From Phycisphaerae bacterium (GTDB lineage Bacteria; Planctomycetota; Phycisphaerae; UBA1845; Fen-1342), in assembly GCA_050115495.1 (NCBI GenBank), contig JASFQK010000066.1:1-13223 (forward strand): a stretch of DNA of 13,223 nt, read 5' to 3'. Made by a program: the position numbers and the translations under genes. Below, one piece after another: positions 1 to 13,223 of the stretch (position 1 is the stretch's first letter; the number at the start of each line of letters is the position of its first letter). Under the pieces are notes generated by a model. It was not told the DNA's origin and did not search any database. It saw only the letters and a program-made list of their open reading frames with translations.

Positions 1-49
1 TTCGGTGGACGTCCATCCCAATCTGCGATACGCTCGTCTGCATTCCCAT
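1..49 (-). CDS. IS110-family transposase, N-terminal fragment (truncated by window edge)
   Basis: ATG at 49-47 (alternative 43-41), AGGAG at 60-56; translation MGMQTSVSQIGMDVHR. Confidence 0.75.
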   Translation of the reverse strand, partial: MGMQTSVSQIGMDVHR

Positions 50-126
50 GGCTGTCTCCTGCTTCCAGAGAATCCCACCGGAAACGATAACCGTTCCCGG
101 CAGGAGGCAGCCTTTCATGGGATTAC
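1..126 (-). mobile_element. IS110-family element, left end and transposase 5' fragment (copy 1, pointing out of the window)
   Basis: Exact reverse complement of 13097-13222; identity stops abruptly at 126/127. Contains RBS AGGAG and an ORF beginning MGMQTSVSQIGMDVHR, matching the N-terminal (I/V)GxD(V/L)(H/S/A)K pattern with the first Asp of the IS110 DEDD domain. Confidence 0.8.
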
Positions 127-129
127 AAT

Positions 130-402
130 CTATGTCGCGGACGACCGACCTTCCTTCAGCAGGCCGGCGACGAAGTCGGAGACAATCTCCGCGCCGAGCG
201 TGGCCAGGCGTTCTTCCACATCCTCGGCGAAATGGCCGAGCATCCCTTTGTCGGCCAGCAGGTCCACCACGCGATGATGCAGCCGGCGCATCAAGGCTTG
301 ATCTCGCCGAACCTTCTCGGGCAGGGCGATGTTGATACGGCCCCGGTCGTCCTCCATCGCGTGCAGAGCCACGAGCGGAAACAGCCTCGATTTTCTAGCC
401 AC
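130..402 (-). CDS. Hypothetical 90-aa protein, translationally coupled to the HNH gene
   Basis: GTG at 402 preceded by AAGGAGGAGG; overlaps the upstream ORF by 8 nt (395-402); stop TAG at 132-130. Product MARKSRLFPLVALH...LLKEGRSSAT looks helical; no family recognised. Confidence 0.7.
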   Translation of the reverse strand: MARKSRLFPLVALHAMEDDRGRINIALPEKVRRDQALMRRLHHRVVDLLADKGMLGHFAEDVEERLATLGAEIVSDFVAGLLKEGRSSAT

Positions 403-742
403 GGGGCACCTCCTCCTTCGGCCCAAGGACGGCGTGGGGGAGAATGCTGAAGTGGCCTTCGGCGACGCAGACCTCGATCGTTCGGAAGATCGGCTTGTGG
501 ACCAGCAGGTGGCACGATTTGCACAGGAAGACGAAGCGATCGGGGCGAATCGGCGGGACGTGGTGGATGGTCAGGTTCTCCGTCGAGCCGCAGGCGATGC
601 ACGGCGTGATCTCGACCCGGCCGGTCTTGACCAGCCGCACGGACTTCCGCCGCAGGCGGTTGCGTTTCCGCTGACGGTGTTTGGCGCCCTTCCCCCGGCG
701 TTTTAATTGGATGGGATTCCCGGTACTATCGACAGCAACCAT
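395..742 (-). CDS. Small Zn-binding HNH-endonuclease-like protein (115 aa)
   Basis: GGAGG RBS 6 nt upstream of the ATG; motif CIAC-GSTENLTIHH-VPPIRPDRFVFL-CKSCH-LLVH (CxxC...HH...LCxxCH); very basic N-terminal segment. Confidence 0.75.
   Translation of the reverse strand: MVAVDSTGNPIQLKRRGKGAKHRQRKRNRLRRKSVRLVKTGRVEITPCIACGSTENLTIHHVPPIRPDRFVFLCKSCHLLVHKPIFRTIEVCVAEGHFSILPHAVLGPKEEVPRG
724..729 (+). promoter_or_regulatory. Candidate -10 (TACTAT) of an antisense promoter inside the start of the HNH ORF
   Basis: TACTAT at 724-729 with TTTTAA 17 nt upstream (701-706). The -35 match is weak. Confidence 0.4.
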
Positions 743-947
743 TCTGCACCTCCCGGGGTGTAGCTTGGCCAGAGCCGGGTCGGTGTGTCTGCACCTTCTC
801 GGCTCGCCTTGCGCATAGGCGGAGCCACCGTGTGGTTAGACAGCACAAGCCGCAGCGCCGCAAGGGCGCAGTGGAAGGCTCACGATGACTCCGCGCGTTC
901 CAATTATCTTAAGAAGCGCACGACACAACTTGTCCTGTCTAACCATA
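736..947 (+). ncRNA. Candidate structured cis-antisense RNA / structured leader region
   Basis: Hairpins at 744-763 and 801-826, a GCAA-tetraloop hairpin at about 850-874, and a 19-bp closing stem 831-849/929-947. Several mismatches are G-U pairs on the + strand but C-A on the - strand. Confidence 0.4.
831..947. repeat. 19-bp imperfect inverted repeat (17/19) with 79-nt spacer
   Basis: TGTGGTTAGACAGCACAAG (831-849) versus reverse complement of 929-947, TATGGTTAGACAGGACAAG. Confidence 0.85.
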
Positions 948-951
948 GACA

Positions 952-980
952 AGTATGCCCGATAAACGCGTACAAGTCAA
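952..980 (-). promoter_or_regulatory. Sigma70-type promoter for the HNH operon
   Basis: Minus strand TTGACT (980-975), 17-nt spacer, CATACT (957-952), within an AT-richer patch; predicted start near 945-946. Confidence 0.7.
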
Positions 981-1012: not shown

Positions 1013-1100
1013 GTAGGGCGGGCCGTGCCCGCCAGCCTCTCCGCGACCAGGAAGATAGGGAATTGACGCGGCCCCCACCGACAGGCGTGGCCCACCCTGC
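1013..1100. repeat. Inverted doublet of GTAG-type REP sequences (REPIN-like)
   Basis: GTAG-GGCGGGC-CGT-GCCCGCC at 1013-1033 (+) and a degenerate GCAG-GGTGGGC-CAC-GCCTGTC at 1100-1080 (-). Confidence 0.6.
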
Positions 1101-13096: not shown

Positions 13097-13223
13097 GTAA
13101 TCCCATGAAAGGCTGCCTCCTGCCGGGAACGGTTATCGTTTCCGGTGGGATTCTCTGGAAGCAGGAGACAGCCATGGGAATGCAGACGAGCGTATCGCAG
13201 ATTGGGATGGACGTCCACCGAAA
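13097..13223 (+). mobile_element. IS110-family element, left end and transposase 5' fragment (copy 2, pointing out of the window)
   Basis: Identical to 1-126 in inverted orientation; 77-nt non-coding end followed by ATG at 13174. Confidence 0.8.
13174..13223 (+). CDS. IS110-family transposase, N-terminal fragment (truncated by window edge)
   Basis: AGGAG RBS at 13163-13167; translation MGMQTSVSQIGMDVHR. Confidence 0.75.
   Translation, partial: MGMQTSVSQIGMDVHR

Follow-up and report, generated by a model that had tools for sequence, protein, structure and literature searches.

The minus strand of the window, a whole 13-kb contig (13,223 nucleotides) of a 5.97-Mb genome, carries a module composed of a promoter, a leader of ∼205 nt, a 115-aa HNH reading frame (ORF1) and a coupled 90-aa frame (ORF2), flanked by a divergent radical-SAM gene and, at 1–126, by the end of a repeated element. 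Comparison of its copies shows that the promoter of the mRNA and a second promoter, embedded antisense within ORF1, are both conserved, that the leader contains a covarying helix (P1) and two complementary elements (a' and a), that these RNA structures each prefer one of the two strands, that ORF1 is under purifying selection, and that the module has spread in multiple copies. The explanation I favor, with a probability slightly under one half (roughly 0.45), is that of a selfish nuclease cassette resembling a type I toxin-antitoxin system, with two RNA locks and processing-dependent activation. Judged by the tests run, the module is not a member of symE/SymR, PtaRNA1, C4 or OMEGA. No description of an antisense-controlled HNH module, or of such a module from Phycisphaerae, was found in the literature searched; two non-membrane type I toxins are named in the review literature consulted, SymE and RalR, neither of which is an HNH protein.

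Layout, surroundings and copies of the module

The mRNA promoter (952..980, minus strand) reads TTGACT-17-CATACT, with the -35 at 980–975 and the -10 at 957–952, and the predicted transcript start is near 945. It is one of 2 promoter-like sites identified by the promoter scan in positions 1–2500, where 0.4 are expected, and the pattern TTGAC-17-CAT[AG]CT, which served as inclusion filter for the aligned leaders, is found in 22/22 of these, at a distance of 237–243 nt from the start codon. Also kept in all 22 copies is a T-rich stretch of the mRNA strand 5' of the -35 (981–1000), possibly an UP element or operator. The Shine-Dalgarno sequence GGAGG (749..753, minus strand) is invariant in 22/22, and is followed by ORF1 (395..742, minus strand; a basic helix and a CxxC/CxxC HNH-type domain) and ORF2 (130..402, minus strand), which begins with GTG at 402 and overlaps the 3' end of ORF1, stop codon included, by 8 nt. 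An earlier note on this DNA had already described the promoter, the ribosome-binding site and the two coupled frames, all of which are borne out here, but it had overlooked the multi-copy state of the module and the separate covarying domain formed by the first ∼130 nt of the leader.

Just after ORF2 lies the end of a multi-copy element (1..126, minus strand) that is not part of the module, and which I take to be IS110-like from the N-terminal motif of its frame, as it resembles an IS110 transposase. The same 126-nt end is found at four contig ends, namely window 1–126, window 13097–13222 (inverted), C7 and C24, all joined at a shared GTA junction. On the other side, the shared sequence of the own-genome copies begins at a palindrome (1013..1033, plus strand), and a second one is found at ∼1078–1100; both are presumably REP-like, and the first is probably context rather than part of the module. 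Since the paralogue on contig C28 has a REP at the corresponding place, the element copy at 126 may have landed in one. The genome contains 168 copies of the REP core GTAGGG[CT]GG and 6 Y1 transposase matches. REP-borne mobility of the module was nonetheless rejected, as the core is found within 150 nt upstream in 4/4 own-genome copies and in 0/18 others.

Four leaders are found in this genome: that of the window, that of a whole copy on C28 (88% identity to the window over 907 nt), and those of two copies truncated within ORF1 by the end of their contig. Contig C61 (L022:1603-1661) also contains, amid repeats, a 55-nt piece of ORF1 that is probably what is left of a fifth own-genome copy. A relative, G516, possesses 9 whole leaders and 1 partial leader, dispersed over its chromosome; runs of N, which were kept unaltered, break ORF1 in 7 of the 9 whole copies. 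In the order, a DNA search with two candidates scored per genome matched 7/279 genomes, two of the seven being the own genome and a chance match of 24 nt, and found no module DNA in 71 other genomes of the family, nor in 6 of the genus; plasmid and phage DNA searches gave chance matches only. Protein searches retrieved 50 close relatives of ORF1, those named being from Phycisphaerales and Planctomycetota, and 117 of ORF2.

The alignment used below consists of 22 distinct leaders; that these are mutually related and come from about ten sources counts against the best explanation. Excluded from it were L006 and L011 (contig without leader), L034 and L048 (5' half only), L028 and L033 (divergent variant), L029 (chance match), L012, L014 and L015 (distant HNH proteins, no match to the leader model), and duplicates. 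Scanning 52 of 71 ORFs, flanking or in the module, identified no family common to the loci as a group, and no transposase or integrase common to their neighbours; one integrase fragment, TIR domains in 2 loci and AAA_13 in 1 were the matches of note. The module is inserted in unrelated genes and in intergenic regions, and these sites showed no target in common. The spread is therefore patchy and intragenomic, and in this the module resembles symE, for which scattered, multi-copy occurrence without a common mobility gene is described (PMC1891008).

The antisense unit within ORF1

A promoter is predicted on the opposite strand inside ORF1 (701..729, plus strand), with the -10 TACTAT at 724–729, corresponding to ORF1 nt 14–19, and the -35 TTTTAA at 701–706. 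The latter is weak, matching 3/6 positions of the consensus, which is why the promoter scan missed it, and this counts against the best explanation. In E. coli K-12, the symR -10 (TAGAAT) is the complement of symE nt 14–19, so the equivalence of position suggested in the earlier note is correct; a -10-like hexamer is present at this register in 6/8 of the symE-family loci examined. The same register supports the plus-strand RNA start proposed in that note, but shifts it from 736 to 737, since SymR starts opposite symE nt 6.

Across the 22 copies the embedded -10 is TACTAT in 14, TACCAT in 7 and TACGAT in 1. Conservation in homologues, which the earlier note had named as a test, is thus complete: the hexamer reads TAnnAT in 22/22, even where the amino acid changes, against a background of 1/1281 gene starts with TAnnAT at that register (7/1281 with TAnnnT). 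T is the third base of ORF1 codons 5 and 6 in all copies, while the genome uses T in 13–24% of such codons, and codon 6 varies among Ser, Gly and Arg at the position tolerated by the promoter; elsewhere in the frame, the Ser99 codon is AGC in 10/11. These comparisons indicate that conservation of the -10 acts at the DNA level and that protein constraint does not explain it. The embedded promoter accounts for the conservation of the ORF1 N-terminus.

The predicted transcript is a cis-antisense RNA of SymR/PtaRNA1 type (737..812, plus strand; approximate ends), ∼75 nt in length and with two hairpins, a fold that is predicted in 22/22 copies over the Shine-Dalgarno sequence and start codon. The second hairpin (772–805, plus strand) has a variable loop at 786–791: its stems are 98% conserved, and 18 loop variants are found among the 22 copies. 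In all of these the antisense strand gives it the greater stability, by 2–8 kcal/mol, and its wobble pairs (0 GU on the mRNA strand vs 22 AC) also point to the antisense strand.

An Rfam scan of 1400 nt around the module identified nothing relevant. In narrowed stretches, chosen post hoc, a whole-model match to PtaRNA1 was obtained at 736–809 (plus strand; 18.4 bits, E 0.087, against a cut-off of 47), and the same place in homologue L005 matched PtaRNA1 (21.1 bits, E 0.041) and symR (19.5 bits, E 0.16, against a gathering score of 61; a true symE locus reaches 52.4). No symR match was listed for the window. These are resemblances, not memberships, and scores so far below the cut-offs, reached only after narrowing, count against the best explanation. 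PtaRNA1 (Rfam RF01811) is the best Rfam match, over the whole model and on the same strand and place; the comparison is with the Rfam model alone, its score of 18–21 bits is far from 47, and the loci described here are chromosomal and from Phycisphaerae. The likeness to symE/SymR (Rfam RF01809; PMC1891008) extends to the -10 at ORF nt 14–19, to a ∼75-nt two-hairpin RNA, here predicted, over the ribosome site and start codon, and to a non-membrane cargo of ∼115 aa. In contrast, the cargo here is an HNH protein with a coupled ORF, not the AbrB-fold SymE, and identity with SymE was rejected, as neither ORF, nor anything in the whole genome, matches PF08845. Taken with the shared register, the 22/22 conservation of the -10 and hairpins, and the sub-threshold full-length matches, a symE/SymR-like layout is supported, and the predicted antisense RNA very probably acts as a brake on ORF1.

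The same antisense hairpin is found on a viral contig (L117:1-120), 62 nt before a CxxC ORF and without the 5' domain. This ORF, which has a TAAAAT hexamer at nt 13–18, breaks off with the contig after 19 residues. The gene directly 5' of the viral hairpin is, from its resemblance, probably what I take to be a tail-chaperone gene. Separately, a Klebsiella symE homologue (L065:442-700) is preceded not by a SymR cassette but by a leader of C4/isrK type, suggesting that cargo and RNA control are swapped in the symE family too.

The 5' leader domain

The first ∼130 nt of the leader form a separate covarying domain that is absent from E. coli symE. All its elements are on the minus strand. The P1 helix pairs a 5' arm (925..944) with a 3' arm (834..853), and encloses a copy-specific linker (895..924; 53% mean identity over 22 copies), the near-invariant 14-nt element a' (881..894), and a small 5-bp hairpin, P3 (855..869), which is part of the RNAalifold consensus and shows one-sided changes only. 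Element a (819..832), downstream of P1, is complementary to a', and can pair with it, with the ribosome site or with the start-codon region. The ∼200-nt structured leader of the earlier note holds for this domain (z -4.6 in the window, median z -4.0 over the 22 copies), whereas the leader as a whole folds modestly (z -1.87).

P1 is the best-supported structure of the leader. Over its 19 pairs, 96.3% of cells are paired, and 14 pairs and 96 cells show double changes; 0/500 shuffles reach 96 cells and 2/500 reach 14 pairs, while slid controls pair 33–53%. The covariation that the earlier note had proposed to look for in the upstream RNA is therefore strong in P1. For a'/a, 99.7% of cells are paired, with 4 one-sided changes and no double changes, so that this pairing rests on conservation, on wobble-compatible changes and on a divergent variant from G509 (L033:1426-1589, L028:4-130). 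The leader of that variant shares the antisense unit but not the 5' region, which is AT-rich, and contig ends truncate its ORF; the a'/a core is kept, and a' is hidden in another, upstream hairpin. A 14-bp helix arises in 5/300 shuffles, and this, together with the lack of double changes, counts against the best explanation. Pairing of element a with the ribosome site (95.9% of cells) also shows no double changes. A second pairing, b'/b, was rejected, since it is mismatched in 19/22 copies and has no covariation excess.

Folding predicts that P1 and a'/a are mutually exclusive. In full leaders a'/a is below 0.5 in 18/22, mostly with P1 formed, and removal of the P1 5' arm lets a'/a form in 22/22. 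Wobble pairs (GU vs AC) place both helices on the mRNA strand, with 58 vs 8 for P1 and 44 vs 1 for a'/a; as the second antisense hairpin shows the opposite preference, these counts provide independent support that both strands are transcribed. However, a strong on/off switch at the ribosome site was not reproduced by folding: the median opening energy changes from 12.0 to 11.2 kcal/mol between the full and switched forms, with a gain above 1 kcal/mol in 9/22 copies, and from 8.8 to 8.5 kcal/mol in a shorter window. This small gain counts against the best explanation. A processing-dependent switch is an even bet; if real, the covarying 5' domain would be a new RNA switch without an Rfam family.

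The geometry of this domain also brings to mind the phage regulators C4 (P1/P7), CI (P4) and IsrK (RF01695, RF03163, RF01394), which share a stem-closed domain at the transcript 5' end and a loop complementary to a downstream leader site. On their model, the 5' domain would be cut out as a small RNA, whose a' would bind a in trans on new transcripts, repressing as C4/CI do or activating as IsrK does. This would fit the coincidence of the 5' end of P1 with the predicted transcript start, the closure by P1 of a domain of several arms that encloses a', and the exclusion of P1 in cis by the 14-bp a'/a helix; IsrK is described as activating its own long isoform in trans (PMC4825925), and C4 pairing sequences as presented in loops (PMC12197685). 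I regard this as quite unlikely, as no Rfam match to C4, c4-a1b1 or isrK was found, while a true C4 locus scores 66.7 bits; there is here one invariant site instead of two coded sites, a' and a being near-invariant and so carrying no specificity code, the b'/b pairing fails as noted above, no upstream target site is seen in the leader alignment, and there is no antirepressor gene.

The six G516 paralogues compared are 98% identical over the first 84 nt of ORF1, but only 62% in the P1 arms, 48% in the linker and 47% in the antisense loop. The loop variation is what would be expected if the antisense pairs avoid cross-talk. For P1 and the linker, the divergence could reflect old leaders with a recently homogenised ORF1, a fast turnover of the inverted repeat, or a specificity code. 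With ten paralogues bearing private loops on one chromosome, orthogonality of the antisense RNAs is directly testable, and the copies could supply orthogonal RNA switches.

A specificity code would be expected if the leader were a scaffold RNA and the linker a guide, as in an RNA-guided mini-nuclease of IshB/OMEGA type; IshB combines a PLMP with an HNH domain (PMC10734217), and here too a structured RNA immediately precedes an HNH ORF, and copies that are almost identical elsewhere have different linkers. The earlier note had offered an RNA-associated nuclease as an alternative, which gained no support; a relation to IshB/omegaRNA, prompted by the look of the ORF1 N-terminus, was rejected. PLMP similarity is absent (hhalign probability 0.4% against nine IscB N-termini; RRXRR in 0/38 homologues), no RuvC is present, the leader RNA model, R1, misses four IscB loci, and the Rfam scans gave no HEARO match. 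As guides, the linkers have own-genome matches of only 13–15 nt, which is chance level. A 20-nt viral match of the window's linker, the one of 22 scanned against viruses, involves four contigs that represent one gene in related viruses, and does not extend. The variable part is also internal, and the P1 arms vary as much. I consider this reading very improbable. Because the leader parts are 47–62% identical beside 98% identical coding DNA, the 5' domain could also be imagined as a released scaffold binding ORF1, or ORF1 and ORF2, the linker programming the recognition of each copy; such a tiny, RNA-directed HNH system without relation to IscB, carrying a SymR-type brake in addition, is likewise a distant prospect. 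Two other genomes, G652 and G709, contain 9 and 6 RRXRR (IscB/IsrB-type) matches.

The encoded proteins and the proposed mechanism

The HNH-like character attributed to ORF1 in the earlier note is upheld by profile searches. Pfam HNH matches ORF1 weakly (E 0.011, under the cut-off), and does so at E ≤ 1 in 37/38 homologues; three PHROG HNH families (phrog_2340, phrog_1271, phrog_8048) match residues 15–83 at 1e-5. Residues H60, H78, H82, C51, C74 and C77 are present in 38/38 homologues, C48 in 37 and H61 in 36, providing the HH motif, the helix His and the zinc-binding CxxC pairs of an HNH protein, while the position of the canonical Asn is Arg in 36/38; I presume for these residues, the structural Asn included, their customary roles. 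The best fold match is the nicking Gme HNH (Z 4.4, rmsd 5.6, 76 aligned; model pLDDT 64), and Foldseek with the ORF1 model returned nothing at E ≤ 0.001. The Arg substitution and the weak fold matches count against the best explanation. With a median dN/dS of 0.24, and all 78 pairs below 1, ORF1 is under purifying selection along its length, and I lean slightly towards it being an active, toxic nuclease. As a defence system the module was rejected, with no PADLOC match for the window's proteins and weak ones (E 0.007–0.04) in 2/5 homologues.

By sequence, the nearest families to ORF1 are those of phages, although no ORF1 relative was found in the viral contigs searched. Similarity to free-standing phage HNH endonucleases covers residues 15–83, and a viral contig has the same antisense hairpin; the module differs from these by a conserved C-terminal segment, ORF2 and the 5' RNA domain. 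This kinship is the starting point for regarding the module as a homing-type selfish nuclease. In that case the RNA locks would serve only to limit the supply of a nicking HNH enzyme, which would drive the copying or gene conversion of the cassette encoding it, any killing being incidental. Recombination homogenising ORF1 would be expected to give the 98% identical ORF1 starts beside leader parts at 47–62%, and the neighbours share no transposase or integrase. Yet the insertion sites are unrelated and no common target was seen in them, and I judge homing to be unlikely, although it is, with the trans-acting C4/IsrK-like RNA, one of the two chief alternatives.

In the favored reading of a toxin-antitoxin-like cassette, the strong promoter would produce a bicistronic ORF1-ORF2 mRNA. 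During transcription, P1 would close before element a emerges, trapping a' in its loop, and the free element a would fold over the translation start, resulting in a stable, poorly translated full-length message. The promoter inside ORF1 would produce the ∼75-nt SymR/PtaRNA1-type RNA, which would meet the mRNA at the copy-specific loop and cover the ribosome site and start codon. If P1 is then cleaved or trimmed, a' may become free to pair with a. The resulting form would go either to translation or to capture by the antisense RNA, similar to hok and tisB, whose activation is reported to depend on processing (PMC4147584). Were the antisense RNA lost, ORF1, as a small zinc-binding HNH nuclease, and ORF2 would be made and the cell harmed, and this harm would keep the cassette in place. 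With hok/Sok and tisB/IstR-1 (PMC4147584), the module shares a long structured leader, alternative folds and translational coupling, as well as the processing proposed here; it differs in having no hydrophobic peptide toxin, and in a predicted antisense RNA that covers the start codon directly. On the simplest history, a phage HNH gene with a SymR-type brake may have gained a promoter, a switching 5' domain and a partner gene, before spreading within some Phycisphaerae chromosomes. If real, this would make the SymR/PtaRNA1 cassette a brake transferable from one cargo or phylum to another, stacked here on the new switch.

The partner gene is coupled at -8 in 9/13 loci with a whole ORF1; in one it runs off the contig, and in three it is missing or broken, which fits poorly with the idea of an essential inhibitor. 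Tandem duplicates of ORF2 are found at L004, L007 and L010. These duplicates, and the start at -8 wherever ORF2 is intact, would suit an arrangement in which ORF1 is mainly a coupling frame, like mok, through which Sok is described as acting (PMC4147584), with ORF2 as the effector. I find this improbable, since purifying selection acts on ORF1 along its length, some of its Cys and His residues are invariant, and 3/13 loci have it with no intact ORF2 alongside. Within the cassette as I interpret it, ORF2 would most likely be a modulator or inhibitor of ORF1.

ORF2 belongs to no known family: none of its 117 relatives has a Pfam domain, its best fold match (Z 5.0, on a model of pLDDT 60) indicates no clear fold, and an Atlas search gave no usable match. 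A histone fold was considered and is not supported, with E 0.12–0.24 against the TAF12 profile; when five bacterial histones were compared, the hhalign probability was 0.8%, and the 25 Pfam families shown for 94 ORF2 members include none of histones. Histone-fold genes as such (L112-L116) are present in 5 of the 301 genomes searched in the phylum.
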